DNA of 29,428 nucleotides from a virus (IMGVR_UViG_3300037264_009888); one strand, 5' to 3'. Shown: positions 1-15,216, counted from the first letter of the stretch. Notes: generated by a model not told the origin, from the sequence alone. Translations and numbers: made by a program.

Positions 1-159
1 TCATGCCGCCTTGAACATGCTAGGCCGAATCCCCGCCTTCGCCAGCAACTTCCCGAAACTCACGCCCCCCTGGGCCGCCTGGGGACGGGGCCGCCTCTCG
101 GGCTTGTAGCCCTTCGGGGCCGGAACCACCACTCCGTACCTGCTCATGTCTGTCGCCAT
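1..159 (-). CDS. hypothetical small protein (52 aa, MATDMSRYGVV...)
   Basis: ATG at 157-159 (minus) with GGGCCCCTGCC...AAGGAGGGACGGAGA directly upstream; stop at 1-3. Start taken at the RBS-supported Met, not the ORF-track Met. Confidence 0.5.
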   Translation of the reverse strand: MATDMSRYGVVVPAPKGYKPERRPRPQAAQGGVSFGKLLAKAGIRPSMFKAA

Positions 160-234
160 TCTCCGTCCCTCCTTTGACTTCCGGCAGGGGCCCGTCGGCG
201 TTTCCGGCACGTACAGCCTGCCCGGACATGGAGT

Positions 235-273
235 GGCCCCCTGCCTGGGGCACAAGCCGCCAGGCAGGGGGCC
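235..273. repeat. perfect 14-bp inverted repeat (GGCCCCCTGCCTGG / CCAGGCAGGGGGCC) with 11-nt loop; possible terminator or RNA element
   Basis: Read directly. The stem contains the GGCCCCCTGCC start-associated motif. It lies between the stop of the 322..684 gene and the upstream element of the 1..159 gene. Confidence 0.6.
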
Positions 274-321
274 GGGGGACGGAACTTCTCGGAACTGCTT
301 GTCGGTACGGCGTTTACGGCA

Positions 322-684
322 TTACGCTGCGTCGTGAATCCAGGTTGTATCCCGCTGGTGCTCCTGCATCCACTTCAACGCCAGCCGCTTGCCCTTGCGG
401 TACTGCTCCTGCGGGACGACCACCCACCGCTTGCCCATGAATATGTTGCCGCTGGCTGTCGCCCCGATGCAATCCTGGTGGGGACGCCAGAAGTCCGCCC
501 GCACGCCCTCGGCCTTCAGGTACTCGATGACCCGCTCCAGTTCCGCCAGAACCTTGTCCGTGGGGGCCGGACTGTCGCTGCATCTCCCGCAGTCGCTCGA
601 TCCCGCAACCGCATGTCTCGGAATGTCGTAGCTGTCGCGGCCCCAGCCGTCAACGCCCTTGTGCCGCCTGAATTGGCTCGCCAT
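322..684 (-). CDS. hypothetical protein (120 aa, MASQFRRHKGVDGW...)
   Basis: RBS GAAGGAGGAC then ATG at 682-684, preceded by GGGCCAGGGCCCCTGCGAGG. Real start is internal to ORF-track 322..804. Confidence 0.55.
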   Translation of the reverse strand: MASQFRRHKGVDGWGRDSYDIPRHAVAGSSDCGRCSDSPAPTDKVLAELERVIEYLKAEGVRADFWRPHQDCIGATASGNIFMGKRWVVVPQEQYRKGKRLALKWMQEHQRDTTWIHDAA

Positions 685-724
685 CGTCTCGTCCTCCTTC
701 GCTTCCTCGCAGGGGCCCTGGCCC

Positions 725-967
725 CTAGTCCTCCGGCACGTAGGGGAACGGGTATCGCTCCTCCTCCGTGTCCCCAATGTCCTGCCTCGGCGTAGGGTCC
801 GCACGCCGGAAGCCCATCTTGCCCTCGGGCTGCGGAGCCTGCCCCTTCCCCCCGACGGCGTTCTCGGGAGCGGCGTTTTCCAGCCGCTCCGCAGCCTCGT
901 GCAGGAACTTCGCTATCTCCCGCGGGCTCTCGGAAGGCTCCGTGTCCACTGAAATCGTGATCTTCAT
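725..967 (-). CDS. hypothetical protein (80 aa, MKITISVDTEPSE...)
   Basis: GGGCCCCGCCCGGGAGTTGAAGGGAGGGCCGAGG precedes ATG at 965-967; internal start of ORF 725..1282. Confidence 0.5.
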   Translation of the reverse strand: MKITISVDTEPSESPREIAKFLHEAAERLENAAPENAVGGKGQAPQPEGKMGFRRADPTPRQDIGDTEEERYPFPYVPED

Positions 968-1026
968 CCTCGGCCCTCCCTTCAACTCCCGGGCGGGGCC
1001 CGCTTGCCGGCACTGGCGTTTCTCGC

Positions 1027-1239
1027 CTACCGGACCGACCGGGCCGGATGCCCCCACGCCCCCATGCCCTTCGCCTTCCCGATCGCGTCCCGCATGTTCG
1101 CCAGGGCCAAGACCCCGAAGAACGCGGACAGGCAGCAAATCCCGAACGCCCCGAAGGCCAGCAGGGCCAGCAGCGACAGGCCGAAGTTGGCAACCGCCAC
1201 CAGGCCCGACAGAACGGCCAGAATCTTCATCCGCAGCAT
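1027..1239 (-). CDS. small hydrophobic membrane protein (70 aa)
   Basis: MLRMKILAVLSGLVAVANFGLSLLALLAFGAFGICCL is strongly hydrophobic. RBS GGGAGGGAAC lies upstream of ATG at 1237-1239. Confidence 0.5.
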   Translation of the reverse strand: MLRMKILAVLSGLVAVANFGLSLLALLAFGAFGICCLSAFFGVLALANMRDAIGKAKGMGAWGHPARSVR

Positions 1240-1281
1240 CTTCGTTCCCTCCCTCAAGTCCCCTCTGCCCGGCTCCCGGCA

Positions 1282-1521
1282 CTACGCCGGAACCATGTAC
1301 GACTGGCCGACTACCTTGCCGCCCGGGCGGGCGTAGACTACCGACGCCATCGCCAGGACCTTCCGGCAGTGGCCGTCAAACCTCGGCCCCAGGACCTCGG
1401 TCTCAACCATCCTGTACTTCCCGCCGTCCAGCAGCTCAACGAACCGCCGGACCGCAGACCCGGCAACCTTCTTGCCGGCCCGCAGGGCGGCCAGGAACTC
1501 CCGTCTCGTCGCTTGTCTCAT
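1282..1521 (-). CDS. hypothetical protein (79 aa)
   Basis: GGGCCCCTGCCGGAAGCCGGAAGGGGGACGACG precedes ATG at 1519-1521. Confidence 0.55.
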   Translation of the reverse strand: MRQATRREFLAALRAGKKVAGSAVRRFVELLDGGKYRMVETEVLGPRFDGHCRKVLAMASVVYARPGGKVVGQSYMVPA

Positions 1522-1553
1522 CGTCGTCCCCCTTCCGGCTTCCGGCAGGGGCC

Positions 1554-1781
1554 CTACCCCTCAGCCGGCACGTCGCTCTTGCTCTCAACGTCGCTCGGAT
1601 CGATGTCGCAGTCCCCGATGACAAGCTCGAAACTCGACAGCTCGAACGGGTGCGGGAAGCCAGCCGCGCGAACGGGCCAGGTAAAGTACCACTCGCACTC
1701 GCTCTCGTCATGCAGCACCGTCCAGCCTTCCTTGCGGAACTTCTCCGCCGCATCCTCCGCGTACTCCAGGCACGAAGCCAT
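1554..1781 (-). CDS. hypothetical acidic protein (75 aa, MASCLEYAEDAAEKF...)
   Basis: ORF with modest RBS (GGGAG..AAGGGATG); no start-associated element. A competing ORF 1436..1870 in another frame is low-complexity. Confidence 0.45.
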   Translation of the reverse strand: MASCLEYAEDAAEKFRKEGWTVLHDESECEWYFTWPVRAAGFPHPFELSSFELVIGDCDIDPSDVESKSDVPAEG

Positions 1782-1856
1782 CCCTTCTGCTCCCTCTGCT
1801 TCCCGTTCTTGAACTGAAGGCAGACTTCCATCAGAACGTCCTGGTTCACGTCCATC

Positions 1857-1991
1857 CTAGTATCCCCCAAGCAAGGTCACCGAGAAGCCCCGAATCTCGT
1901 ATGTCACGCCTTCCCGAACCAGCTGGGCGACGAACGCCGCCATCAGCCTCATCCCGTCCTCATCCGCATCGAAGTCAACGGTATGCCTCAT
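1857..1991 (-). CDS. hypothetical mini-protein (44 aa, MRHTVDFDADEDGMRLMAAFVAQL...)
   Basis: Translated by hand. ATG at 1989-1991 overlaps the TGA (1988-1990) of the upstream gene as ATGA, with GGGAGGA 9 nt upstream. Below the ORF-track size cutoff. Confidence 0.3.
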   Translation of the reverse strand: MRHTVDFDADEDGMRLMAAFVAQLVREGVTYEIRGFSVTLLGGY

Positions 1992-2182
1992 GGCCGCTGG
2001 TCCTCCCGCTTCCGCTCGGGGCCCTGCCGCTGGCAGTCCCGCTCGCTGGCACGCCCAATGTCCCCGCCGCTCGCCCTGACGATGTTCGTCAGCAACGCCT
2101 GCTGGACGCTGTTCGTCCCGTTCCCCGCCAACGCCGCCCTGAACTCCTGCATGGAAAGCCCGTGATGGTCAAAGGTTATCAT
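1988..2182 (-). CDS. hypothetical protein (64 aa, MITFDHHGLSMQEF...)
   Basis: GGGCCCCTGCGAGCAGTTGAAAGGGGACGGAT precedes ATG at 2180-2182. Confidence 0.5.
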   Translation of the reverse strand: MITFDHHGLSMQEFRAALAGNGTNSVQQALLTNIVRASGGDIGRASERDCQRQGPERKREDQRP

Positions 2183-2357
2183 ATCCGTCCCCTTTCAACT
2201 GCTCGCAGGGGCCCGCCCCTCCTGGCACGTACCGCCAGGACGCCGACCCCCGCCGGGCCCCGACCTTGAATCGCGGGCTGGGAGGAAGGCGATTCATCCG
2301 GACCCGACCCCCGGACGCCTTCCTGCCCAGCCAAACAACCAGGCCAAGGAGAACGCC

Positions 2358-2534
2358 ATGCGCAACGGAAACAGCGGGACCGCCATCAGAAACTGCGGAT
2401 GCAGCAACGCCTTCCAGGACGCCCGCTACGGCCCCGGCCGCCGCGTCGCCAACGCGACCAAGGACGGGCACCGCTGCACCTCGTGCGGCCAGGCCATCGC
2501 CCGGCAGGCAAAGCCCGTCGCCGCCATGGCCTAG
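2358..2534 (+). CDS. small Cys4 zinc-ribbon-like protein (58 aa, ...NCGCSN...HRCTSCGQ...)
   Basis: Hand-translated. RBS AAGGAGAAC at 2346-2354, ATG 2358, TAG 2532-2534. First plus-strand gene after the divergent intergenic region 2183..2357. Confidence 0.5.
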   Translation: MRNGNSGTAIRNCGCSNAFQDARYGPGRRVANATKDGHRCTSCGQAIARQAKPVAAMA

Positions 2535-2571
2535 CGGCAGGGCCCCGTCCCTGGGACGGAGGGACAAGACA

Positions 2572-2724
2572 ATGGGCGTCAGCGTCATGCAGGCCGGCTG
2601 GTTCTGGCTCCTTGTCCCCGAATGGAGGGACGGAAGCCTCTACGCCGTGACCGTCCAGTTCTGGTGCGAGCGGGGCGACACGGTGGTCCACGGGGCCAAG
2701 CCCTACGCCAGCGTCTACGGATAG
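2572..2724 (+). CDS. hypothetical protein (50 aa, MGVSVMQAGWFWLLVPEW...)
   Basis: GGCAGGGCCCCGTCCCTGGGACGGAGGGACAAGACA precedes ATG at 2572. It is the 3' portion of ORF-track 2266..2724. Confidence 0.45.
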   Translation: MGVSVMQAGWFWLLVPEWRDGSLYAVTVQFWCERGDTVVHGAKPYASVYG

Positions 2725-2751
2725 GGCCCCGCCGAGAGACCGGAGGAACCG

Positions 2752-2964
2752 ATGCCAAAATATCCCGAGGGCAAGTTCTACGTCGGGATGAGGGGCGAGA
2801 ACCCCGACCCCAAGTATCCCTGCATCATCTCCGGCCCCTTCGATGTCCCGCCGGACATGGGCACTTCCGGGCACAACCTGTGGACCCGCCAGGGCCACGC
2901 CTGGGTCTGGGTCAGGGCCGCCCCATACGTGCCGCCACGCTGCCCCTGCTGCGGCAGGGCATAG
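2752..2964 (+). CDS. hypothetical protein (70 aa, C-terminal CPCCG)
   Basis: TAGGGCCCCGCCGAGAGACCGGAGGAACCG precedes ATG at 2752. Confidence 0.5.
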   Translation: MPKYPEGKFYVGMRGENPDPKYPCIISGPFDVPPDMGTSGHNLWTRQGHAWVWVRAAPYVPPRCPCCGRA

Positions 2965-2996
2965 GGCCCCTGCCCCCAGGACGGAGGGACGACGAC

Positions 2997-3632
2997 ATGC
3001 GATGCCACCACGGAATGGAAGAGGGACAGTGCGCGGCCTGCAACCGCCTTTCCAGCCTGCTCGCCGCCCAAAAGGCAAAGAAGTCCGCCGAGGCAGCCAA
3101 GGAAGCCGCCAAGGCCGCTGCCAAGCAGGCCCGCGAGGAACGCCTCAAGCCGCAGTTCGCCCGCGACGAGGACTACTTCATCGGCCTCGGCCTTCTGGCC
3201 GCGACCTGCTTCGTGGACGCCCACGTCCCCCCGCAGTTCCGCGCCAAGTTCGCCGGCGACTACCTCGGCCTCACCGGCCTGCCCGCCAACGCGGGCGACA
3301 CTGGCTTCACGACCGCAGACCCCAACCAGTGGGGCATCAGCATGAGGATATACTTCCCCAAGCGGGTCTTGAGCATCCTCCCCGGACTGGAAGCCTTCGT
3401 CACCTGCACCGACATCTCCGATTCCAACACCTCCGCCGTCAACAACAAGCGGTGGGCCTACGAGCTCTTCTCCCTCGGATTCCGCCTCGGAAGGAAGCAC
3501 GACCTCGAGGCGATCCGCCGCTCCATCCCGCCCGAGAGCCTGGAAGCCTTCGACCTCGGCTTCTCCTCGGCCGCCCCAGCAGAATCCGTCCAAATGTCCG
3601 CGGCCCCGGCCTCGGCATCGGCCGCCGCATAG
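2997..3632 (+). CDS. CHHGME-motif protein, paralog A (211 aa)
   Basis: CATAGGGCCCCTGCCCCCAGGACGGAGGGACGACGAC precedes ATG at 2997. Protein opens MRCHHGMEEGQCAACNRL, followed by a K/A-rich helix. Confidence 0.6.
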   Translation: MRCHHGMEEGQCAACNRLSSLLAAQKAKKSAEAAKEAAKAAAKQAREERLKPQFARDEDYFIGLGLLAATCFVDAHVPPQFRAKFAGDYLGLTGLPANAGDTGFTTADPNQWGISMRIYFPKRVLSILPGLEAFVTCTDISDSNTSAVNNKRWAYELFSLGFRLGRKHDLEAIRRSIPPESLEAFDLGFSSAAPAESVQMSAAPASASAAA

Positions 3633-3676
3633 TGCCTGGAAGCCGGGCCCCTGCCCCAAGCCGGAGGACGACGACA

Positions 3677-3991
3677 ATGAAATGCCACCACGGAATGGAA
3701 CAGGAACAGTGCGGATGCTGCCAGAAGCTCGCCATCCTGGCCGCCCAGCAGAAGGCCGCGAGGGACGAGGCCGCCGCCAAGGAAAAGGCCAAGGCCGACA
3801 AGGCCGCATCCAAGGCCAAGGCCGAGGCCGACAAGCAGGCCCGCAAGGCCGCACGCGAGGCCAAGGCCGAGACAAGGGCCGAACTGGCCCGCGAGCGGTT
3901 CGCCGTCAAGGCCCAGCGGGACTACGAGGCCGCCCATCCCGAACTGGCCGCGGCGGCAGTGGCGGCAGTGCCGGCCGCGGACGCCGCCTAG
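3677..3991 (+). CDS. CHHGME-motif protein, paralog B (104 aa)
   Basis: GGGCCCCTGCCCCAAGCCGGAGGACGACGACA precedes ATG at 3677. Protein opens MKCHHGMEQEQCGCCQKL and has a K/A/E-rich helical tail. Confidence 0.6.
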   Translation: MKCHHGMEQEQCGCCQKLAILAAQQKAARDEAAAKEKAKADKAASKAKAEADKQARKAAREAKAETRAELARERFAVKAQRDYEAAHPELAAAAVAAVPAADAA

Positions 3992-4021
3992 GGCCCCGGC
4001 CCCAAGCCGGAGGAAACGACA

Positions 4022-4300
4022 ATGGCTTCCGACTGCATCAAGGCCAAACTCATCGCCGCTGCCTGCGTCTACGACGCCCGGCAGGCCAAGAGGCCCGGCT
4101 ACAACCGCTACGCCCTGCCCCAGTACGTCGCCAGAATCCACGAGGTATGCGACGCCCTGCCAGCAGACGCCCTGCCAGCAGACCCCAGCGTCCGAAAGGG
4201 GCTGCTGCATGGCTTCAGCGGCAGGCTCGCCGACGCCATGCTGAAGGCCGTCGGCCAGCCCAAGGCGACCAACGACGAGGCCCGTGCCGCAGGCTGGTAG
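4022..4300 (+). CDS. hypothetical protein (92 aa)
   Basis: TAGGGCCCCGGCCCCAAGCCGGAGGAAACGACA precedes ATG at 4022. Contains an in-frame 15-bp duplication (ALPADALPAD). Confidence 0.55.
   Translation: MASDCIKAKLIAAACVYDARQAKRPGYNRYALPQYVARIHEVCDALPADALPADPSVRKGLLHGFSGRLADAMLKAVGQPKATNDEARAAGW
4154..4183 (+). repeat. perfect 2x15-bp tandem duplication (gccctgccagcagac x2)
   Basis: Read directly; in frame inside CDS 4022..4300. Confidence 0.9.
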
Positions 4301-4334
4301 CCGGGCCCCGCCCAAACGCCGGAGGGACGCGAAC

Positions 4335-4589
4335 ATGACGACGACGAAGCCGAAGATGCGGGTCATGCGGGACGAAGAGTTGGACCGCCCCGAGCAACTG
4401 GAATGCAGGCTGGCCCAACTGCGTGCGGAACTGGCGACGGCGGACGACAAGGCCCAGACGGTACGCCGCATTGAGCGGCTCAAGCAACGCCTGAACCCCA
4501 ACGGGACGGTCAAGCCCCCCGTCCCCGCCATCATGCTGGTCAGCAAGCGGGACGTTGACGACTGGGGCGACCGCCATCCCGCCATGTAG
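4335..4589 (+). CDS. hypothetical protein (84 aa, MTTTKPKMRVMRDEELDRPEQLECRLAQLRAELA..., predicted helical)
   Basis: TAGCCGGGCCCCGCCCAAACGCCGGAGGGACGCGAAC precedes ATG at 4335. Confidence 0.55.
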   Translation: MTTTKPKMRVMRDEELDRPEQLECRLAQLRAELATADDKAQTVRRIERLKQRLNPNGTVKPPVPAIMLVSKRDVDDWGDRHPAM

Positions 4590-4604
4590 GGCCCCGACCG
4601 AGAG

Positions 4605-4850
4605 ATGCAAGACAAGGCCATGGGGCAGGGTCACGAGGGCAACGACGGCATTGCGCCGTCCCCTCCCCCTGCCCACGCCTTTGCCCCCGCCCATTCCTGG
4701 CACGGCCCGCCAGGCCGCCAGGGCATGACGGCCGGGCCCCGCCCCAAGGCCGGAGGGACGAGCCATGCGAGTCAAGATTACCGTGGACGAGGAAGAGATC
4801 AGGAAGCTCATCGTCGGGCTGCTGGCAGACAAGAGCGGCGTCGAGGTTGA
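4605..4850 (+). CDS. doubtful ORF (81 aa, Pro/Gly/Arg-rich low complexity)
   Basis: Preceded by TAGGGCCCCGACCGAGAG but with no good RBS. Overlaps the better-supported 4765..4944 gene in another frame. Confidence 0.2.
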   Translation: MQDKAMGQGHEGNDGIAPSPPPAHAFAPAHSWHGPPGRQGMTAGPRPKAGGTSHASQDYRGRGRDQEAHRRAAGRQERRRG

Positions 4851-4944
4851 CCCGCAGGCGATCGTCTTCCACTCGCCGGACAACGACGAGATCAGCGCCT
4901 CCATCGACGTCGACGCTGCCGACCTGCACCCTGTTCCGAACTAG
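4765..4944 (+). CDS. hypothetical acidic protein (59 aa, MRVKITVDEEEIRKLIVGLL...)
   Basis: GCCGGGCCCCGCCCCAAGGCCGGAGGGACGAGCC precedes ATG at 4765; TAG at 4942-4944. Hand-translated; below the ORF-track cutoff. Confidence 0.45.
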   Translation: MRVKITVDEEEIRKLIVGLLADKSGVEVDPQAIVFHSPDNDEISASIDVDAADLHPVPN

Positions 4945-5176
4945 GCCGAGGGCCCCGCCAAGAAGACATGAGAGATTCGGGAAGTTCGTCAGTCAACCGG
5001 GTGGTGAATGAGGCAGCGGGGCGCTGGTAGAGACCCGACCGAGGGCAGCCACCTACGGGGAACGCACGGCCATGCCCCATATCGCCAGCAGCCGACCGGA
5101 GGGCTAGGCCAGCCCAAGGGCGTCGGTATCCGAGGGAGGGCCCCGCCCGAGGATGCAGGTAGGAGGGGCGAGTATT

Positions 5177-5217
5177 GGCGGGGGACGGCCTGGCAAGCCG
5201 CCCCCAGCCCTTTTGTG
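5177..5217 (+). terminator. putative intrinsic terminator for the plus-strand small-gene array
   Basis: Imperfect GC-rich stem GGCGGGGGACGGCC..GCCGCCCCCAGCC with an inner CGGC/GCCG helix, followed by CTTTTGTG. Folding not computed. Confidence 0.3.
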
Positions 5218-5462
5218 CGGGCAGATTCCAGGCACTGAGTGCGAGGAAGAGCAGTGCCATGGGCAAATCGAGCAGGGGGGGCGCCTATCCCCCCGTCCAT
5301 GCGAAAGGGACTCCCGGGCCGTTTTGGGTACCCCGTTGGGATGGCCCTCCACGAACAAAGGCCTAACGCGAGGGTCTCCTGCGGCTGGGGGGTTGGGAAA
5401 ATTCCTAACCCCCCGTGGGGGGTCGAAAAAGGTACTGGGATTGGCCGGCAGGGAATCCTAAT

Positions 5463-6866
5463 CTATTCAACTATTAGATGAAGAGGAAAGTCCGTCTTGT
5501 TGCTTTTTGCAAGGTTCGTTTTCTTGTCCAATTGCTGGTATTCGGTTGTAGAGAAAAGGCTTTTGGGCTTTACATGGTCTGTTTGGGAGTTTTCCGCAGT
5601 CAGGGGCATGCCGCTGACGGGGTCCCGGTCCGGTGCTTGCCTGATGGATTCGCGTCGGCCGATTTCCGTGACTCCCTTCATCTTTACCCCAATGTCTAAA
5701 CCAGGAATCGCCTCCAGCAGGCACTGAAGATTGGAGAGACGGGCCTCTATATTCTTTACGACATGGGTATTGGATTTAGAGAAACTGAGACCTTCCGTAT
5801 CGTTCCATGTACCGTGTGCGAAGAACATGTTCGCAAGCTTTTTCTCGTTTTCCCTGACGAATGCGTCTGTGAAGACCCTTTTTTGCATCTGCTGGACGAA
5901 GAACCAAATGCAGTCAGACACCCACACGTCAGTCATCCTGTTCTGGGTCTGCTTGTCCCTGAGCATGTCATTGAATGCGCTGCAAGCCTTGCGTATAACA
6001 TCTATCTGCTTTCTCCTGTCAGGACCAAGTTTGTCGAGGTCCTCCTCGTAGAATTTCGATTCCATCGGAGAGTTGCACAATTCGAGTTGTTGCTCCAGGT
6101 TACAGAGAGCCTTGTCCTTTGACGCCCCACCAAGGTCCCTTACCTGGAAGCTGTCGTCGAGCCTTGTTCCCAATGGCAGGAGCAGCAACTTGTGCACGAA
6201 GATTATTCGGCTGAGTTCGTTTTGTGCCGTCTTGCGTTGGAGTGCCCTTACAAGGAGAGTCTTGTCCTTGAAAAACCACTCCCAAAGGAACTCCAGGAAT
6301 CTCTTCGTTCTGGCGTGCAAGCAATACTGCTTCTCTGTCGCTCCAAGGGATTCTCCTCCGTTGATGCGGCTGAACAGGAGCATTCTGGCGGCGGTCGTCA
6401 AAGGGTCGTAACAGTACATGTGCAGATTGTACTCGTCAAAGGAGCGCATGATAGCCCCGCACGTTACATCCCCCTCCTCGGACCTTCTTGCTATCTGCCC
6501 GTATGTCATGTTCTTGGAGATTTCCTCGGCGACTCGCGGGGGGGTAAATAGCACTGGGACGGTCAGCTCGTCGTCTCGGAAGGCTTTGATGGTTGACAGC
6601 CTTTGCTTGCCGTCGGCAACCCACCAATCGCTCGCCGCAGAAGGCTTGCTCTTGGCTACTACATGTATCAGGTTGATGGGCTTGTCCTCGACGATGGACT
6701 CAATAAGCGCTCGCTGCTTCGCTTTGGTCCAGACCTCTCCTCTTTGGTAAACATCCTCGAGGTCGTATCTTGCCGACTGTTGGCAGAACTGCTGGATGGT
6801 CATTACCTTTGGAACTGGCTTGTCTTGCTGTTCCCTGAATGGATCAATTGCTGTTTTCGTGTTCAT
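5463..6866 (-). CDS. DUF262 (ParB-like NTPase) + DUF1524 (His-Me finger) GmrSD-family type IV restriction-like endonuclease (467 aa)
   Basis: N-terminal DGKQRLSTI matches the DUF262 DGQQRLTT motif. C-terminal ...QTDHVKPKS matches the DUF1524 (E/D)HIxPxS motif. Visibly lower GC than its flanks. ATG at 6864-6866 with GGAG 7 nt upstream; the ORF-track GTG at 6878 is less likely. Confidence 0.8.
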   Translation of the reverse strand: MNTKTAIDPFREQQDKPVPKVMTIQQFCQQSARYDLEDVYQRGEVWTKAKQRALIESIVEDKPINLIHVVAKSKPSAASDWWVADGKQRLSTIKAFRDDELTVPVLFTPPRVAEEISKNMTYGQIARRSEEGDVTCGAIMRSFDEYNLHMYCYDPLTTAARMLLFSRINGGESLGATEKQYCLHARTKRFLEFLWEWFFKDKTLLVRALQRKTAQNELSRIIFVHKLLLLPLGTRLDDSFQVRDLGGASKDKALCNLEQQLELCNSPMESKFYEEDLDKLGPDRRKQIDVIRKACSAFNDMLRDKQTQNRMTDVWVSDCIWFFVQQMQKRVFTDAFVRENEKKLANMFFAHGTWNDTEGLSFSKSNTHVVKNIEARLSNLQCLLEAIPGLDIGVKMKGVTEIGRRESIRQAPDRDPVSGMPLTAENSQTDHVKPKSLFSTTEYQQLDKKTNLAKSNKTDFPLHLIVE

Positions 6867-6959
6867 CGTAGGCTCCACGCCTTTCCTGCTGTCAAATCAC
6901 AATGGCAGATTATATCTGGAAGATGGGAGGGCTTGACTTAAATTTGCCCATTCCCTGGA

Positions 6960-7180
6960 GACGAAGACGGCCCTGGCGGGTTTGGCCGCAGGGCCGTCTT
7001 GCCGGAATCGGGGAATCCGGAAACCCTGGGGCTTGTGGAGAGCCCTCGCACCTCCGGATTAAGGAATCCGGTGGACCCCGGTCACTGTGGCAGACGGACG
7101 CCCCTAGGGATTGAGGGATCCCAGGAAACCCCTCGAATTGAGGAATTCGAGGCGACCCCCGGAAGCTCCGGGACGCTGCC
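6960..7180. promoter_or_regulatory. array of related imperfect palindromes (CCGGATTAAGGAATCCGG, GGGATTGAGGGATCCC, CGAATTGAGGAATTCG, GGAATCGGGGAATCC); putative operator cluster in the leader of the DUF262 gene
   Basis: Read directly. Shared core is GGAATT(N)AGG(N)AATCC-like. Lies between the 7205..7241 promoter and the DUF262 start. Confidence 0.4.
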
Positions 7181-7211
7181 CGCGAGGAGGGTACCGCTCG
7201 CAGACTGGTAC

Positions 7212-7241
7212 ATCATACGCCGTCGGGGAGGGGGATGTCAA
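7212..7241 (-). promoter_or_regulatory. sigma70-type promoter (TTGACA-18-TATGAT) reading toward the DUF262 gene
   Basis: Minus strand: -35 TTGACA at 7241-7236, -10 TATGAT at 7217-7212. Confidence 0.5.
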
Positions 7242-7250
7242 GCGGAAAGG

Positions 7251-7526
7251 CTAGTCCCCGGACCCACGAGGCAATCCCCCCACGACCGCGCCGCGGTGGA
7301 AGAACATGAGGTCGCTGGGGGATATCTCGACGCTTCCGGAGGCGAGGGCGAGGGTGACGGGGCGGCCGATCTGGACTGCCATCTGGTGGGCGCGCTCGGC
7401 CGCCTGGACGTCCGACTCGCCCGGGCGTGGGGCGACGACGCGGCGGCAGGCGGCCTTGTCGAGCCTGTCGGTCTTGGAGAACCTGCAGTTGCTCCTGAGC
7501 CAGGACGAGACGTTCGAGGCAGTCAT
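7251..7526 (-). CDS. hypothetical protein (91 aa), immediately upstream of the DUF262 promoter
   Basis: RBS AGGAAGG then ATG at 7524-7526; the real start is internal to ORF 7251..7694. Confidence 0.5.
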   Translation of the reverse strand: MTASNVSSWLRSNCRFSKTDRLDKAACRRVVAPRPGESDVQAAERAHQMAVQIGRPVTLALASGSVEISPSDLMFFHRGAVVGGLPRGSGD

Positions 7527-7558
7527 GCCTTCCTGTTCGGCAGGGAGGGGGCAGGTTC

Positions 7559-7804
7559 CTACTTCTTGGCCGACTTGGGCTTCGGGAGGTTCTTGGCCTC
7601 CAGGGGAAACGCGTGGTGGTGCTTCTCCAGCCATTCCTCCGAGACCTCGACGAACTCGTACTTGATGCCGAGGGCGCCCAGGACCCTGGGCCATTCCAGG
7701 GAGTGGTTTCCGCCGTGGCTCTTGCCGTTCACGTACAGCTCCTCCCAGTCGCCGTCTTCCGGTGCGGCCACGACTATCTCGGGGACATCCTTCTTGCTCG
7801 GCAT
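7559..7804 (-). CDS. hypothetical protein (81 aa, MPSKKDVPEIVVAAPEDGDWEELYVNGK...)
   Basis: RBS AAGGAG then ATG at 7802-7804. Confidence 0.5.
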   Translation of the reverse strand: MPSKKDVPEIVVAAPEDGDWEELYVNGKSHGGNHSLEWPRVLGALGIKYEFVEVSEEWLEKHHHAFPLEAKNLPKPKSAKK

Positions 7805-7808
7805 GGCG

Positions 7809-8114
7809 TTACTCCTTGCAGCCAAGGGACTTGCTTGCCTCAACGGCCTTCTCGTGGGACGATCCTATCATGCGGTAGAGGTCTTCGGGGGAGAAGCCCG
7901 GCTCGGAGCGGGTCTTGCCCGAGCGGTGCCACTCCTCGGCCTTGAGGTGGCAGTCCTCGCAGAGGGAGACGCCGTTCTCGGGGGCGTAGCCGCCGTTGGG
8001 CATCTCGTAGCGGTCGGAGATGTGGTGGGCGTCTGCGGCGGGCCTGCCGCAGGCCTTGCAGAGGCTGCGGTCGCGCTGCAGGCAGGCGGAGCGGAAGCTG
8101 GAGCGGAGGCTCAT
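7809..8114 (-). CDS. HNH endonuclease (101 aa)
   Basis: CKACGRPAADAHHISDRYEMPNGGYAPENGVSLCEDCH matches the HNH signature C..C...HH...N...C..CH. ATGA overlap with the upstream gene. Confidence 0.75.
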   Translation of the reverse strand: MSLRSSFRSACLQRDRSLCKACGRPAADAHHISDRYEMPNGGYAPENGVSLCEDCHLKAEEWHRSGKTRSEPGFSPEDLYRMIGSSHEKAVEASKSLGCKE

Positions 8115-8320
8115 TCCTCTTCCTCGTCCTCGGCGTCCTCTTCGTCGTCCTCAGTTCCGTCGGGCTGCCCCCAGTCGCTGGCGGCCTCCTGCAGGGTTAT
8201 AAGGTAGTCCTGGGCGTCGTCGACGCAGTCAGGGACGACGAGCGCCTCGTACATGTTGCGGAAGAACCTCTTCATCTTCCGGTACTCCGCGACCTGCTCG
8301 GGGGTAAGTTGCTCTGCCAT
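8111..8320 (-). CDS. hypothetical protein with poly-acidic tail (69 aa)
   Basis: GGAG 8 nt before ATG at 8318-8320; C-terminus EDDEEDAEDEEEE. Confidence 0.5.
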   Translation of the reverse strand: MAEQLTPEQVAEYRKMKRFFRNMYEALVVPDCVDDAQDYLITLQEAASDWGQPDGTEDDEEDAEDEEEE

Positions 8321-8323
8321 GTC

Positions 8324-8893
8324 CTATCTCCGCCCTTTCCCCTCTGGGGGCATCGCCTTGCGGAGGACCAGGTCGAGCCTCGGGGCCAGCCCCTCGAGGT
8401 CGGCCGCGGGGTGGTTCCACCCGCGCCACTTGGCCCAGGTGATCTCGCCCGTCTGCCTGTCCCTCCGCCTGTCGCACCACCTGACGAACGCCGACCCCCT
8501 CGTGTAGCCTATGAGTATCTCGCCGTCCCCGGAGCTGGCGTTCTCGAGGCAGCGCGCCTTGGCGTCGTAGGTCCCGACGAGCCAGCGCATGAGCCCCGCG
8601 CACTCGGACAGCCAGTCGCGCCTGAGGCGCCAGAGCCTGAGGCGGTCGCTGTCCGTGTCCTCTTCCTCGAGGACTCCGAAGGGGACGAGCCCCAGCTCGG
8701 AGGCGTCGTCGTCCATGTGGTACTCCATCAAGCCACGCTTGGTCTCTGCCCAGTAGTTGAACCCCCCGCCCCTGTCCCAGCGCTTCAGGACCCTGCCGGG
8801 CGGGGTCAGCAGGTCGAGCCACCGCTGCTGGTCGGGGGTCAGCCACTCTATCCTCACCTTCCCTCCCCGGGGGGCGGCCTGTAGGGCTCCCAT
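8324..8893 (-). CDS. hypothetical protein (about 189 aa)
   Basis: Start chosen at MGALQAAP; alternative downstream Met at 8728. Overlaps the 3' end of the upstream gene by about 40 nt. Confidence 0.4.
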   Translation of the reverse strand: MGALQAAPRGGKVRIEWLTPDQQRWLDLLTPPGRVLKRWDRGGGFNYWAETKRGLMEYHMDDDASELGLVPFGVLEEEDTDSDRLRLWRLRRDWLSECAGLMRWLVGTYDAKARCLENASSGDGEILIGYTRGSAFVRWCDRRRDRQTGEITWAKWRGWNHPAADLEGLAPRLDLVLRKAMPPEGKGRR

Positions 8894-9066
8894 CCCTGCA
8901 GCTTGTGGTACTTCTTCATGGCGCTCGTCCAGGACGCCGCCTTGATCGTCCAGACCAGCTCGGCCTTGTCGTCCTGCAGCTTGCCGTTCTTGAACCGCGG
9001 GGGGCCGGGGCCTTCCACGACCGTGTCCGCTATCCCGTCCCTGCCCCACGCCGTGTACGTCCTCAT
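8854..9066 (-). CDS. hypothetical protein (70 aa, MRTYTAWGRDGIADTVVEGPGPPRFKNGK...)
   Basis: GGAGGA 7 nt before ATG at 9064-9066; internal start of ORF 8854..9429. Confidence 0.45.
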   Translation of the reverse strand: MRTYTAWGRDGIADTVVEGPGPPRFKNGKLQDDKAELVWTIKAASWTSAMKKYHKLQGWEPYRPPPGEGR

Positions 9067-9068
9067 CG

Positions 9069-9275
9069 TCAGGTCCTCCGGGAACCGGAATTTTTTGGTG
9101 GCGGGAGGCAGGCCCCCGGGGCCGTCGAGCCCGTGTCGGTCAGGCCGCCCCCTTCCGCAGCCTTCAGGGCGTTCCTGCCCAGGGCCGTGGCGGCGGAGCA
9201 TGCGTGGGTCCTGACGGCGAGGGGGCATTCCATGTCCATCAGCCGCTTGCAGACCCTCAGCCTGTAGGTGTTCAT
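9069..9275 (-). CDS. hypothetical protein (68 aa, MNTYRLRVCKRLMDMECPLAV...)
   Basis: Start chosen so as not to overlap the 9287..9484 gene; weak RBS GAGG. Confidence 0.35.
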   Translation of the reverse strand: MNTYRLRVCKRLMDMECPLAVRTHACSAATALGRNALKAAEGGGLTDTGSTAPGACLPPPKNSGSRRT

Positions 9276-9286
9276 CACCTCGTGCC

Positions 9287-9484
9287 TCAGTCCCGACGCC
9301 GGATGGCGGCGATCTCCTTGACCCGACTGTCCCATCGCAGGAGGACGCTCGCGACATCGTGGAACAACTTGGCGTCGTCGGTCTCGATGAGGATTCGGTC
9401 CAGGGCGTCCGCGGCGCGGGAGCCGCCAAACGTCCCCTTGTAGCATCGGCCCGTGGCCTTGAGCGACGTCTCCTTCGGTTGCAT
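9287..9484 (-). CDS. hypothetical protein (65 aa)
   Basis: AGGAAGG RBS; its ATG abuts the TAA of the upstream gene. Confidence 0.45.
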   Translation of the reverse strand: MQPKETSLKATGRCYKGTFGGSRAADALDRILIETDDAKLFHDVASVLLRWDSRVKEIAAIRRRD

Positions 9485-9709
9485 TTACTTGCCCTTCCTC
9501 ATCTTGGGGACGCTGACGTACTCGACCATCTCGTTCCTCTTGGTGTCCCAGATGACGCAGGGGGCGTGGTCCCTTGCCCCCTCCCTGGCGTCCGCGAGGT
9601 CGTCGCCGGTGTCGAGGATGAGGGCGTCGTCGGGGTCATCCATGGCCCTCTCGTCGAGGACCAGGTACCTGGACCCGTTCCAGTTCTTCCGAGCATCTTG
9701 CGTAGGCAT
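9485..9709 (-). CDS. hypothetical protein (74 aa)
   Basis: AGGAGGTG RBS before ATG at 9707-9709. Confidence 0.5.
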   Translation of the reverse strand: MPTQDARKNWNGSRYLVLDERAMDDPDDALILDTGDDLADAREGARDHAPCVIWDTKRNEMVEYVSVPKMRKGK

Positions 9710-9710
9710 G

Positions 9711-9914
9711 TCACTTCACCTCCTGTAAGGCGACCAGTTTCCATTGGTAGTGGCAGTTGCGGATCACGTACTCGTCCGTCTTGTCTGCCTCCTTGGACCA
9801 GAAGGGGCGAGACCTTACCCACTTCAAGAATTCCTCCCTTGCGTCGCAGCCGGGCCGATGGGCGAACAGCCATTCCTCCTCTGTCTGGAAGTCCCAGATT
9901 TTAAGGATGTCCAT
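9711..9914 (-). CDS. hypothetical protein (67 aa, MDILKIWDFQTEEEW...)
   Basis: GAGGAGG RBS before ATG at 9912-9914. Confidence 0.5.
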   Translation of the reverse strand: MDILKIWDFQTEEEWLFAHRPGCDAREEFLKWVRSRPFWSKEADKTDEYVIRNCHYQWKLVALQEVK

Positions 9915-9918
9915 CGGC

Positions 9919-10173
9919 CTACCTCCTCGTCCCGTTGTGGTCGTCCGGGTCTCGGTTCTCAGGCTTGCCAAAGACGTCCCCGCAGTCCTTGAGCATCTCC
10001 ATCCCGGGGACTTTCAGGGAGACGCAGATGTCGTACAGCTCCCTGAGGCCCTCGGCCTTGATGACGGCGCAACTGTGCAGGGTCTTGCTGTCGACCAGGG
10101 AGGCGAAGTACCAGCCGTCCTCCTTGGCCTTTATGCCGAAGCATCCTAGGTGGTACCTTGGCTTGCGTCTCAT
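9919..10173 (-). CDS. hypothetical protein (84 aa)
   Basis: GGAGGAAGG RBS before ATG at 10171-10173. Confidence 0.55.
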   Translation of the reverse strand: MRRKPRYHLGCFGIKAKEDGWYFASLVDSKTLHSCAVIKAEGLRELYDICVSLKVPGMEMLKDCGDVFGKPENRDPDDHNGTRR

Positions 10174-10185
10174 TCCTTCCTCCGC

Positions 10186-11215
10186 TCAATCCCACCATCC
10201 AACAATCCTGCCGTGAAGAAGGACAAACGCAACCGCAGCAGCGAGAGGTACGACCCCGTTTCCGACTGCCCGCAGGGAGTCAGCGCGTCCGCCCAGCCCG
10301 GGGGCCAGCCCATCATCCACGCCGCGAACCTCTCGTTCTCGGCAGGGCATGAGGGAGGGGTCCACAGCCGCAACAGCCTGCCAGTCTCTCCAGCAACGCA
10401 GCTCAGCAAGTATTCTATCTCGTCTGCGGGCGTCTGTCCAGTTCCTGGAGAGCTCGCGGCGGAGCTCGGCGAGGGAGACGGTTCGCCTGGGGGCGAAGAG
10501 GGGGCGTCCCTGTTCGGGGGCCACTGGGTCGACTGGGAGGTGAGGTCGTGCGGGAAGTAGTGCCTGTCCGCCATGGTGGCCCGCTGGCTGCGCCTGCCGA
10601 TGGCGTCGTGGGCCTGGGGGGTCGACCATTCCGCCGCCCGAGCGGGCGAGGAGGAAGACCCTGTTTCGTCGGTGGGGGGCTCCCACTGCGGCCCGCAGGA
10701 AGCACCGTCCATTCCGCATCCCACCCGTCTTCGGCCAGGTCTCCGAGAACCCTGGTGACGCCGGCGGCGAGGCCCCTGCTCCTTTCCGGGGAGAGGAAGC
10801 CGTGGACGTTCTCCAGGAAGAACCACTCGCATCCCATGTCGCGAAGGTGCTGCCGCATCCAGGGCCAGAGGTTGCGGGGGTCGTCGAGGATGAGGCGCCT
10901 GCCCGCGAGGCTGTAGCCCTGGCAGGGGAGGCCTGCGACGGCAATGCCGCCAGCCATTGCTCGACGGAAGACTGGGCCTGGGAATGTCTTGATGTCGTCC
11001 CAGAGAGGAGCCTGACCCAGGGCCTTTTCCTCCATCCTGGCCACGAGGACGGCCGCGGCGTAGGCTTCCCGCTCGACGTACACGACAGGGACGGGCAGTC
11101 TTCCGACCAGCTCGAGGGCGGCATGGAGTCCGACGTCGAGCATGCCGACGCCGGAGCAGAAGCTGGCGACGGGGATGGGTTCTGGTTCGTGGTCGGGTTC
11201 GGGACGTAGAGCCAC
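10186..11215 (-). pseudogene. Dcm-like DNA cytosine-5 methyltransferase, multiply frameshifted
   Basis: Frame 10415..11215 carries motif I (FCSGVGMLDVG), motif IV (GLPCQGYSLAG), motif VI (FLENV) and the start of VIII (AEWTVLPA). Motif VIII continues in a second frame (AAVGAPHRRNRVFLLA). A third frame carries EWSTPQAHD and ENERFAAWMMGWPPGW. Motif X (LRAVGNGVVPLAAAVAFVLL) is back in the second frame. At least 3 frame changes occur between about 10700 and 10285. Start has an AGGAGGAG RBS. Confidence 0.7.
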
Positions 11216-11225
11216 ATCGCTCCTC

Positions 11226-11492
11226 CTAGGGGTTTTCCTCGCCGTCCTCGCAGTCGACCTCCTCGAGGTTCTCCTTGGCGGACTTGGAGGGGTCCCAGCC
11301 GGGGACCATGTCCTCGTAGTCGTCCTCCGAGAAGTTGAAGAAGTCGTCGCGCCAGAACTTCTTGCCGCACTTCCAGCACTTGATGGCGACGCCGTCGCCG
11401 ATCGTGGAGGTGCAGTCCTGCTGGTCGCCTAGGCAGACCCAGTTCTTGGCGTCGCAGTGGGGACAGAACTGCTTGATGTAGGTGTCGGACAT
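11226..11492 (-). CDS. zinc-ribbon protein (88 aa, CPHC...CWKC)
   Basis: AAGGAGAACC RBS before ATG at 11490-11492. Confidence 0.5.
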   Translation of the reverse strand: MSDTYIKQFCPHCDAKNWVCLGDQQDCTSTIGDGVAIKCWKCGKKFWRDDFFNFSEDDYEDMVPGWDPSKSAKENLEEVDCEDGEENP

Positions 11493-12232
11493 GGTTCTCC
11501 TTTCCAGGGGGTGAAGATGTCCCATCCGGGGGGCAGGAAGGCTGGGGACAGAACCTCGACGAGGCGGTCCTTCCACGCCCTGGCGTAGGCCTTCCAGTCT
11601 CCGCCCGTGTCTGGCTCCCAGCCCTCGCAGGCCTTCTCTATTCTGTCGTGGCATTCCATGCAGAGGAACAGGATGTTGGAGATGTGCTTCCGCAGGTCGA
11701 GCGGCAGCTTCTTCTTGTGCCGCTGGGGGACGACGTGGTGCTGGGTGAGCCTGCTGGCCCTCCCGCAGCAGCAGCACCTGCAGTTCTTTGGGAACATGAG
11801 GAGGCTGGAGAACTCGGAGCCGTCAAGGGCGTCTCCGTACAGCCTCCGGAGGGTCTTTTCCGCGACGTCGGTGACGAACTGCAGGGTATCTGGGAGGCCC
11901 TCGACGGGGCGGACGTAGCCCTTGCGGAGGTAGCGGTTGGCCTTGTTCTCGTTGCAGGCGAAGAGGGGCCTGCCTGAGGTCGACAGGATTCTGTAGTTCC
12001 TCCAGATCGTGGCCCCGTCGAGCATGGAGTAGTCGGCCATCTCGTTGATGCGGCGGGAGTCGCGGACGAAGGTCCTGACTCGGCAGCGTCCGTGGGCCTT
12101 GCGGCCCTTCGAGAAGTTGACCGGCGGGTGGAGGATGAGGTAGGAGGCCCTGTCGTCCTCGATTGAGACGATCTTGCGGACGAGGGCGACGCGGCCCTTC
12201 TTCCTTACCCAAACCTCACCTACGGAAGGCAT
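11429..12232 (-). CDS. HNH endonuclease (267 aa)
   Basis: CRCCCCGRASRLTQHHVVPQRH...NILFLCMECHDRIE fits the HNH motif. GAGGAAG RBS before ATG at 12230-12232. Confidence 0.7.
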   Translation of the reverse strand: MPSVGEVWVRKKGRVALVRKIVSIEDDRASYLILHPPVNFSKGRKAHGRCRVRTFVRDSRRINEMADYSMLDGATIWRNYRILSTSGRPLFACNENKANRYLRKGYVRPVEGLPDTLQFVTDVAEKTLRRLYGDALDGSEFSSLLMFPKNCRCCCCGRASRLTQHHVVPQRHKKKLPLDLRKHISNILFLCMECHDRIEKACEGWEPDTGGDWKAYARAWKDRLVEVLSPAFLPPGWDIFTPWKGEPCPTPTSSSSVPTATPRTGSA

Positions 12233-12239
12233 AGCTTCC

Positions 12240-12485
12240 TCATCGCTTGTAGCACCCCGCCGGGGAGTAGTTCTTCCTGTTTCTCTGCCACTCCTCGTAC
12301 AGTTCGAGGCGCCTGGCAACCTCGACCTTGGCGAGGTCGAAGGTAGGGGACAGGAGCCTGAGCCTGTCAAGGAGGTCCGAGTAGAAGTCGATGACCGTCT
12401 TCAGTTCTTGGTTGTTGAGGTCGCCCTGGTTGTCGTTCAACTTCCTGACGGCTGGGGCGACGGACTCGTACTCCTTGGATTTCAC
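12240..12485 (-). CDS. hypothetical protein (81 aa), GTG start
   Basis: AAGGAGGAAGCC then GTG at 12483-12485; GTGA overlap with the upstream stop. Confidence 0.45.
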   Translation of the reverse strand: MKSKEYESVAPAVRKLNDNQGDLNNQELKTVIDFYSDLLDRLRLLSPTFDLAKVEVARRLELYEEWQRNRKNYSPAGCYKR

Positions 12486-12823
12486 GGCTTCCTCCTTGCC
12501 CTGGCCTTGGCCCTCTTCTCCTGGGCCTTCCTGACAGCCTCCTGGGAGACCTGGAAGTCCACGAGCTGGTCAAGGCGTTCCTGGTTTTCCTGCTCGGCCT
12601 TGGCCATGCGGATCCTGTCCTGCTGCTCCCTGAAATCCTCGAGAGTGAGCCAGTTGCCGCTGAGGATCTCTCCCATGGTTTCCTCGCTGATCGTTCCGCC
12701 CAGGAGGTCCAGCTTGATTCTGGCGAGGAGGTCGCAGGGGCGTGCGGCGGCGCACTCCTTGGAGCAGAAGCAGGAGTCCAAGGTCTGGGCTCCGCAGACG
12801 ACGCAGCTCGCTATCCGTGCCAT
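12482..12823 (-). CDS. Cys4 zinc-finger protein with basic coiled-coil tail (113 aa)
   Basis: CVVCGAQTLDSCFCSKEC near the N-terminus; AGGGGGAC RBS. Confidence 0.5.
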   Translation of the reverse strand: MARIASCVVCGAQTLDSCFCSKECAAARPCDLLARIKLDLLGGTISEETMGEILSGNWLTLEDFREQQDRIRMAKAEQENQERLDQLVDFQVSQEAVRKAQEKRAKARARRKP

Positions 12824-12832
12824 TCAGTCCCC

Positions 12833-13306
12833 CTATTCTGTGGCAGCGTCAAGGAGGGCCTCGGCGGCGTCTTGGGCAGCCTTGGCGGCCTCCTCGGACT
12901 GGACGTGGCTGCCGAGGCTCCTGGCCATTGCCTGAACGTCCTTTGCGAGGAGGATGTTGGTGGCCCTGGTCTTTTCGGCCTCCTGCTTGGACTGCTTGAG
13001 GAAGTCCTGCAGGGGTGCCAGTTCCACCAGGACCTGCTGCTTCCCGAGCTGGTCTATCTGCTGCCGGAGCCTGGCCTGCTCGGCGTCGGCTTGGGTCTTG
13101 GCCTTGGCCATGTCCGCCTGGAGGGAGGCGATGGCGTCAGCCTCCGGCTTGCTCCTGAGGGCCAGTTCCTCCCTGAGCCTGGCGACCTCCTGCTTGGCCT
13201 CGTCGCGCTCCTTCAGGACCTGCCCGACGGGCTGTTCGGGGGAACCGCAGCTGCAGAGGGCCAACGAGAGGGCCAACATTGTGGCCCAGGCCATGCCTTT
13301 TTTCAT
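12833..13306 (-). CDS. secreted/lipoprotein-like coiled-coil protein (157 aa)
   Basis: MKKGMAWATMLALSLALCSCG signal/lipobox-like N-terminus, then a Q/A/E/K-rich helix. AAGGAGGAAGCC RBS. Confidence 0.55.
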   Translation of the reverse strand: MKKGMAWATMLALSLALCSCGSPEQPVGQVLKERDEAKQEVARLREELALRSKPEADAIASLQADMAKAKTQADAEQARLRQQIDQLGKQQVLVELAPLQDFLKQSKQEAEKTRATNILLAKDVQAMARSLGSHVQSEEAAKAAQDAAEALLDAATE

Positions 13307-15210: not shown

Positions 15211-15216
15211 CCTTCC

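Follow-up and report, generated by a model that had tools for sequence, protein, structure and literature searches.

A strand-oriented GGGCCCC element at the small-gene starts of an uncultured viral genome, compared with known gene-start repeats and read as a possible promoter cassette

The element among known gene-start repeats

Repeated gene-start cassettes are known from several systems, such as the promoter-early stem-loop (PeSL) elements of T4-type phages, the start-associated sequences (SAS) of cluster K mycobacteriophages and the cluster A stoperators. In the viral DNA IMGVR_UViG_3300037264_009888, of which the whole stretch of 29,428 nt is called the window here, a heptamer GGGCCCC (box B) recurs before the genes of two divergent small-gene arrays (the arms), and a second, GTGCC-type box (box A) often stands upstream of it; the segment 7250-29428 is referred to as the block. 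This element belongs to the same class of repeated gene-start cassettes, but it lies outside the PeSL and cluster K SAS families and probably outside the stoperators. The feature is genuine, far from random and kept in evolution, and with about even confidence it may be regarded as a compact, lineage-specific promoter cassette, presumably read by an element-specific factor.

Judged by function, the T4-type PeSL would be the closest described system. It has been reported that strong sigma70 promoters (-35/-10, AT-rich) are joined there to a G...C stem-loop terminator (PMC2839356, PMC4122927). In both systems a composite signal occupies the interval between two small orphan genes, from the stop codon of the first up to the ribosome-binding site and ATG of the second, and is repeated in dozens of copies over a hyperplastic region, where each gene appears to be its own expression unit, cassettes are gained and lost, and the boundaries of insertions and deletions are marked by the signal. 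However, no sigma70-like site is present in the 11.4 kb of the arms and the leader is free of T, no stem-loop is formed (RNAalifold gives no consensus pairs, and single folds are inconsistent), and the signal here is an all-G+C core with a second box at variable distance.

The cluster K SAS is a 13-bp sequence, GGGATAGGAGCCC, which includes the AGGAG ribosome-binding site and lies 3-7 bp before the start codon; its extended form (ESAS) adds, immediately upstream, two imperfect inverted repeats of 17 bp with a spacer of variable length, and 11-19 or more copies of the SAS occur in one orientation, with a function that was left undescribed (PMC3203893). The sequence-only reading of the window had likened the element to the SAS, and this holds for the architecture only: both are short asymmetric repeats in one orientation (61 copies against 0 here) before unrelated non-structural genes that mostly start with ATG, the upstream stop codon may fall inside the repeat, and a second component lies upstream at variable distance. 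The likeness does not extend to sequence, distance or ribosome-binding-site content (PMC3203893), since the element here has the core [A/C]GGGCCCC, does not include the ribosome-binding site and ends 21-28 nt short of the ATG. Moreover, unlike the ESAS, boxes A and B do not form inverted repeats and show no consensus pairing, and copies are also found before a tRNA gene and after terminators.

Stoperators are sites of 13 nt at which a known monomeric repressor binds, and the genes that they control are transcribed from ordinary host promoters (PMC9283540). More than 20 asymmetric sites in short intergenic gaps, an orientation that follows transcription and the inclusion of the main control region are shared with the present element, whereas a fixed spacing to the start is found only here. 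No repressor with a helix-turn-helix and a stoperator domain and no host-type promoter in the arms were detected, in a genome that is partial and whose proteins are mostly unannotatable.

Private promoters of phage machinery are another standard of comparison. T7-type polymerases and the T4 late motif TATAAATA with gp55 both have known cognate polymerase or sigma genes and A+T-rich melting segments, and the promoters of phage single-subunit RNA polymerases conserve about 20 bp, from -17 to +3, with the polymerase gene in the genome. A short lineage-specific motif near the start, repeated before many units and differing among related elements, is common to the T7 and T4 late promoters and to this locus. 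However, no A+T-rich melting segment and no cognate polymerase or sigma factor is recognised here. At this locus only 8-12 nt are conserved, and no polymerase gene was found in the 37 kb available.

Three further systems were compared and rejected. The Frpo/ssi promoters of plasmid leading regions are hairpins of 50-350 nt that recreate -35/-10 boxes, while the spacers here measure 27-75 nt and contain neither hairpin nor hexamers. Integron attC sites have inverted core sites, RYYYAAC ... GTTRRRY, around a variable centre, but boxes A and B are direct and dissimilar. In sigma54 promoters the GG and GC elements stand exactly 10 bp apart on the gene strand (TGGCAC-N5-TTGC), but a TGGCACG-like sequence occurs here only on the strand opposite box A, and no -12 GC is found at the right distance.

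Distribution, anatomy and conservation

GGGCCCC occurs 20 times in the window, 17 times within 187-5144, and all 17 arm copies are oriented with the coding strand, six on the minus strand (187-2214) and eleven on the plus strand (2255-5144). The longer form GGGCCCCKSCC has 9 matches in the window against 0.61 expected, a number reached in 0 of 100 shuffles, so that the enrichment over background on which the sequence-only reading had made its case depend is present. That reading had also described a conserved element before about 15 small genes on both strands; the array is real and larger than it supposed. In 13 window copies the end of the heptamer lies 21-27 nt 5' of the ATG of a small open reading frame (ORF), with a GGAGG-type ribosome-binding site between them, and four copies (2255, 4589, 4950 and 5138) are orphans, among them the copy at about 4950 that had already been noticed with only a 20-codon ORF behind it, and which is without a ribosome-binding site. 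As had been remarked, a stop codon often adjoins the heptamer, in the form TAGGGCCCC, at 2721, 2961, 3988 and 4586 on the plus strand and at 1548-1557 on the minus strand. In the block there are three heptamers, none of them in a start context.

The proposed consensus GGGCCCC(T/G)(C/G)CC can be kept in part: the core [A/C]GGGCCCC is invariant, and the following K-N-C-C is a preference only. The same applies to the GGAGG(G)AC that was said to follow the element. Ribosome-binding sites are indeed present, but CCGGAGGRAC taken alone is weakly enriched (18 against 11.8 expected) and is thus simply the ribosome-binding site.

A contig of the Logan collection (L130), retrieved by an exact-protein look-up, represents the same genome, being 99.9% identical to the window over 14.3 kb; for most of the region the window coordinate equals the L130 coordinate minus 5979. 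On this contig the left arm extends 6 kb past the window start, so the sequence-only reading had seen just the window part of it. Of 23 leftward genes in the left arm of L130, 18 have the heptamer about 25 nt before their ATG, and with the right arm included there are 30 heptamers in 11 kb. The two assemblies differ in a small arm gene at window positions ~60-100, by a tandem duplication of 18 nt (PQAAQG repeated), and at ~10170-11400 by a 1-nt indel that shifts the called reading frame in a methyltransferase-like region.

Two contigs from other samples, L131 and L132, which are 99.6% identical to each other, were reached through the DUF6876 protein of the left arm. They are syntenic with that arm through 12 orthologs of 44-72% amino-acid identity. 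A search of related genomes had been proposed as a check, and L131 indeed has all of its 31 copies of GGGCCCC on the gene strand, in the same layout. When the arms of L130 and L131 are pooled, to which the following counts refer, the heptamer occurs 61 times in sense and never in antisense, where dinucleotide shuffles lead one to expect 10.3 ± 3.2 and 10.4 ± 3.1, and GGGCCCC is the most strand-asymmetric of all 7-mers; GGGCCC is rare outside the heptamer, 61 of its 63 occurrences lying within it. The base before the heptamer is A or C in 56 of 58 copies, and the next start follows after 21-28 nt in 49 of 58 (mode 24-25). One of these regularly spaced starts is not an ATG but the 5' end of tRNA-Arg. 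Footprinting of 12 orthologous spacers between L130 and L131 showed that only GTGCC, GGGCCCC and the ribosome-binding site persist, the rest having diverged.

Box A, GTGCC(G/A)G, was overlooked by the sequence-only reading. It has seven copies on the minus strand of 204-2228, with variants on the plus strand, and it is found within 45 nt upstream of 42 of 61 heptamers (69%) at a box A-box B distance of 6-36 nt; the other 31% have none in that interval. Helical phasing of the distance was not significant. Between box B and the ATG, the leader is free of T.

The arms also differ from the block in their gene layout. Arm genes are separated by 27-75 nt, against -4 to +11 nt in the block, and 24 of 31 arm stop codons are TAG, against 8 of 33 in the block, where 21 of 33 are TGA. 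The arm TAG often forms part of TAGTGCC or TAGGGCCCC. Translationally coupled arm genes lack the element, and this unit structure is kept between genomes. The arm proteins are mutually unrelated, save for an N-terminus of 27 aa common to two genes, and therefore the repeat is not a by-product of gene duplication. The two genes in question are neighbours (2997-3080 and 3677-3760), and their Cys/His-rich N-termini, M(R/K)CHHGME..QC..C, are 59% identical over 27 aa, the remainders being unrelated. Restriction-site avoidance was likewise rejected as an explanation: GGGCCC occurs 3 times in the block against 9.8 expected (Markov model), like other G+C palindromes, and such a moderate depletion does not account for enrichment at gene starts.

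In related lineages, the motifs at gene starts are different (GGGCCCC, CGGTGCGGGG, TGTATATGG). The 211-aa arm protein has a single relative in a large protein collection, with 60% identity, on contig L006, an array of small genes without GGGCCCC; in its place CGCCGGTGCGGGG is found 42-60 nt before the ATGs, 12 times on the gene strand and once on the other. L006 1-6001 contains a further repeat, GTCGCCTTCCCCTGG / CCAGGGGAAGGCGAC, in both orientations, which is once a perfect palindrome (1935-1962). A more distant relative, L137 (the Planctomycetaceae metagenome-assembled genome (MAG) contig CAZTPX010000166.1), has two genes in common with the family and a per-gene motif of its own, CCAGTTCGGCTGTATATGG, which includes an extended -10-like TGTATAT and lies 18-25 nt before ATGs, often directly after a TGA stop, in 21 sense and 0 antisense copies. 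The GGGCCCC motif was not found in the more distant DUF6876 contexts L133, L135 and L136, and scans of public viral and metagenome collections gave single chance matches only.

A candidate promoter cassette and its rivals

In the region of 175 nt from which the two arms diverge, back-to-back elements are the only signals that recur. No sigma70-like promoter was found in the 11.4 kb of the arms, nor on the gene strand of L132. A scan of 7000-26999 gave eight sigma70-like sites against 2.5 expected, all on the minus strand, i.e., the gene strand of the block, and seven of them inside the block; several are near-consensus, of the form TTGACA-17-TGnTATACT. The sequence-only reading, which held that the block lacks the element and uses sigma70 promoters, agrees with this count.

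In four places a canonical intrinsic terminator is followed by box A, box B and a gene within 20-55 nt. One is L130 ~1000-975 on the minus strand, before the Y4mA_C gene, and it is conserved at L132 5430-5452; another is L130 4121-4103 (minus strand), and a further one, L132 9115-9150, stands before the DUF932-like gene of L131 and L132. Three separate terminators (L130 ~1000-975 and 4121-4103, and L132 5430-5452) share the tail TTTTTTCATGCCC, so that the terminators look like a repeated module too. Moreover, a tRNA-Arg(CCU) lies inside the small-gene array 23 nt after GGGCCCC (L131 8219-8293, L132 6577-6651), copies with leaders of 37, ~52 and 97 nt exist, and orphan copies without ribosome-binding sites precede non-coding stretches.

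Some non-coding features were observed in these surroundings. A candidate small RNA, some 95 nt long, is located in the gap that separates the array from the DUF932-like gene (L132 9029-9150, L131 ~10900-11020), with a sigma70-like promoter, TTGCAT-17-TGGTATCGT, a 13-bp terminator at its end and no Rfam match. A segment at L130 4224-4171 (minus strand) and L131 3139-3193 is 82% identical amid scrambled spacers; its hairpin shows compensatory changes (CCCAGC/GCTGGG versus CCCGCA/TGCGGG), and an intrinsic terminator follows in both genomes. Rfam and tRNA scans of the window itself found nothing.

Among the roles that had been offered for the element, a per-gene promoter is favoured, because of the copies at the divergence point, after terminators and before a tRNA, the leaders of 37 to about 100 nt and the lack of sigma70 sites in the arms, all of which argue for a start function at the DNA level. 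A purely translational role is weakened by the tRNA copy, the copies with long leaders, the absence of a consensus RNA structure and the absence of ribosome-binding-site sequestration.

The cassette would be laid out as follows. A stop codon or intrinsic terminator is followed by box A, (TA)(C)GTGCC(G/A)G, and after 6-36 nt by box B, [A/C]GGGCCCC(K)NC(C), and then come a T-free, purine-rich leader of about 10 nt, GGAGG and the ATG. Acting at the DNA level, box B, probably aided by box A, may serve as a promoter or polymerase-recruiting site, so that each small gene, or translationally coupled pair, would form a separate transcription unit. The transcript would begin a few bases past box B, with a leader of 15-20 nt that carries a strong ribosome-binding site. 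The motif would be read by a lineage-specific factor (an element-encoded RNA polymerase, sigma factor or activator), possibly produced from the neighbouring sigma70-driven block; such a factor is suggested by a motif that offers no A/T to melt, by the lack of sigma70 hexamers and by the different motifs of related elements. Secondarily, the repeated cassettes may act as recombination linkers for gene swapping.

Several points weigh against the promoter cassette. Promoter activity itself, like the position of the start site and the identity of the factor, is something that we infer from sequence. A heptamer of 100% G+C resembles no known melting element, and there is no obvious melting segment nearby. 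Pfam and PHROG searches of about 35 proteins in 37 kb recognised no polymerase, sigma factor, regulator or repressor. The box A-box B distance of 6-36 nt, without clear helical phasing, is what a two-box sigma-type promoter would forbid, and the arrangement with A as -35 and B as -10 was rejected for this reason; the role of box A is left unexplained by so variable a distance. The very tight spacing to the ATG is equally compatible with an RNA element, and intrinsic terminators can leak. In addition, about one promoter per 300 bp is unusually dense, though T4-type PeSL regions are comparable.

A stronger form of the proposal, tentative and rather doubtful at present, is that a small uncultured lineage of mobile elements, with a weak link to Planctomycetota, has a private transcription system, with the core GGGCCCC and a loosely tethered second box as its signal. 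Equally tentatively, this system might employ a polymerase, sigma factor or recruiter of a kind not yet described, which sister lineages would have re-tuned to CGGTGCGGGG and CCAGTTCGGCTGTATATGG.

Of the alternatives, the one that survives best, unlikely as it is, places the function of box B in the 5'-untranslated RNA, as a processing site, a stabiliser of the 5' end, or a site bound by a translational regulator or a factor that loads ribosomes. The start of transcription would then lie elsewhere, possibly at box A, and the variable A-B distance would be harmless. The tight spacing to the gene start and its ribosome-binding site, which stays within 21-28 nt in 49 of 58 copies, the T-free leader and the restriction to the sense strand would suit such a role. 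In many single-sequence folds, moreover, the C-run is paired with GGAGGG, and L006 keeps a box-A-like CGGTGC(G/C)GG alone, 42-60 nt before its ATGs. However, the single-sequence folds are mutually inconsistent, RNAalifold on 25 aligned elements gave 0 consensus pairs and no covariation, and the pairing probability of the ribosome-binding site is 0.42, against 0.41 with a permuted heptamer and 0.49 for block genes, on which grounds a conserved RNA hairpin and sequestration of the ribosome-binding site were both rejected. The tRNA gene and non-coding stretches are preceded by an identical element, leaders of 37-97 nt violate the spacing, and for 31% of the box B copies the nearest 45 nt contain no box A; between terminator and box A a gap of only 20-55 nt leaves little space for another promoter.

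It is quite unlikely that the heptamers are oriented sites for an element-encoded repressor, which would silence the arms at initiation and elongation in the manner of stoperators. A short asymmetric site in more than 30 copies, a single orientation relative to transcription, a position in short intergenic gaps and often over stop codons, and further copies at the divergent control region are all traits that such sites would have. But there are no detectable promoters in the arms to be silenced, and post-terminator genes have the element alone upstream. A fixed distance to the start is not a stoperator trait, and no repressor-like helix-turn-helix protein was detected among proteins that are for the most part unannotatable.

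That the repeats are mere recombination linkers or relics of cassette spread with no regulatory role is very improbable, although L130 and L131 differ in gene content by whole cassettes, orphan heptamers flank inserted genes (e.g., L130 1369; L131 8189 and 8666) and PeSL elements show such recombination (PMC2839356), since the heptamer is invariant in 61 copies across genomes of about 70% nucleotide identity with scrambled spacers, antisense copies are wholly absent, and a core of 8-12 nt is too short for homologous exchange.

Units along the window, gene content and meaning

On the minus strand, the unit nearest to the window start occupies 157-210, where box A (GTGCCGG, 204-210), box B (187-193), a ribosome-binding site and the ATG (157-159) precede a 52-aa ORF. 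A 120-aa ORF is preceded by the unit at 682-739 (box A 733-739, box B 712-718, ribosome-binding site, ATG), whose L131 ortholog retains both boxes, and an 80-aa ORF by the unit at 965-1013 (box A 1007-1013, box B 995-1001, ribosome-binding site, ATG). The unit at 1237-1282, before a 70-aa membrane ORF, has box A only (1276-1282, TAGTGCCGG including the upstream stop) and no GGGCCCC, followed by ribosome-binding site and ATG. At 1519-1571, box A (1565-1571) and box B (1548-1554, as TAGGGCCCC with the upstream stop) are followed by the ribosome-binding site and ATG of a 79-aa ORF. The element of a 44-aa ORF at 1989-2052 (box A 2046-2052, box B 2018-2024, ATG) lies within the 3' end of the upstream ORF, and the first leftward unit at the divergence point, 2180-2228, serves a 64-aa ORF (box A 2222-2228, box B 2208-2214, ATG).

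The divergent intergenic region spans 2183-2357, without a sigma70-like promoter; back-to-back elements at 2208-2214 (minus) and 2255-2261 (plus) are found in it, together with the imperfect palindrome CCTGGCACGTACCGCCAGG at 2221-2239. The first rightward box B (2255-2261) has a long leader, lying 97 nt 5' of the ATG at 2358 of the first rightward gene.

Further along the plus strand, the unit at 2540-2574 consists of box B (2540-2546), GGAGGGAC and an ATG at 2572, and that at 2724-2754 of TAGGGCCCC (box B 2724-2730), GGAGGAAC and an ATG at 2752. The unit of the 211-aa ORF, 2964-2999, combines TAGGGCCCC (box B 2964-2970), GGAGGGAC and an ATG at 2997. In the unit at 3630-3679 the stop codon TAG is part of the box A TAGTGCC (3630-3636), which is followed by box B (3645-3651), a ribosome-binding site and an ATG at 3677; in that at 3968-4024, box A (3968-3974) precedes TAGGGCCCC (box B 3991-3997), a ribosome-binding site and an ATG at 4022. 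The unit at 4284-4337 has the box A variant GTGCCGC (4284-4290), box B (4303-4309), GGAGGGAC and an ATG at 4335. The unit of a 59-aa ORF at 4734-4767 contains box B (4734-4740), GGAGGGAC and an ATG at 4765.

As for the remaining orphans on this strand, box B at 4589-4595 (TAGGGCCCC, no ribosome-binding site) stands before a segment of 140 nt with more stable folding than its shuffles. The stretch 4596-4733 forms a long hairpin with a minimum free energy of -80.9 kcal/mol against -67 for shuffles (z -3.7), the outer stem of which is partly made from the two flanking palindromic GGGCCC copies. The orphan at 4950-4956, also lacking a ribosome-binding site, has the 20-codon ORF behind it, and the orphan at 5138-5144 lies in the non-coding stretch 4950-5460.

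Among the genes of the arms, the families DUF6876, DUF932-like and Y4mA_C are typically carried by plasmids and integrative elements, and DUF6876 was found in no phage record but in 26 plasmid records. Its nearest homologs in genomes come from Planctomycetia MAGs (36-37% identity), and this Planctomycetota link may be a weak hint to the host. The block encodes an RNA ligase, an HD phosphohydrolase, an HNH protein, a methyltransferase-like ORF, a glycosyltransferase and a vault-shoulder protein. The last of these is an 845-aa protein at 20180-22717 (minus strand) that combines major-vault-protein shoulder and SPFH-like domains. Its only counterparts are in huge phage genomes of low GC content: ORFs of LR756500 and LR756501, uncultured huge phages of 462 kb and 735 kb with 24-32% GC, match it at 42-47% identity. 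The motif was not found in these low-GC phages with the vault-like protein. Between arms and block, a GmrSD/DUF262-like gene (5463-6878, minus strand) lies in an island of low GC (53-57% against ~65%) with its own near-consensus sigma70 promoter at 7241-7212 (TTGACA-18-TATGAT), which gives it the look of a defence gene gained not long ago.

Should the heptamer be a promoter, it would represent recognition specificity without an A/T melting element, and it would point to an undescribed transcription factor or polymerase in a family of elements whose genes are almost all unannotated. The heptamer can also be used as a simple sequence tag for true gene starts and transcription-unit borders, and for small RNAs and tRNAs that may be under the same control. 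Within a single genome, an operon block with sigma70 promoters stands beside single-gene cassettes that use TAG stops and signals of their own, and this contrast suggests a programme of expression in two stages. Finally, beside the PeSLs of T4, the cassette architecture would be a second, independent example of regulatory repeats that organise a hyperplastic gene region.

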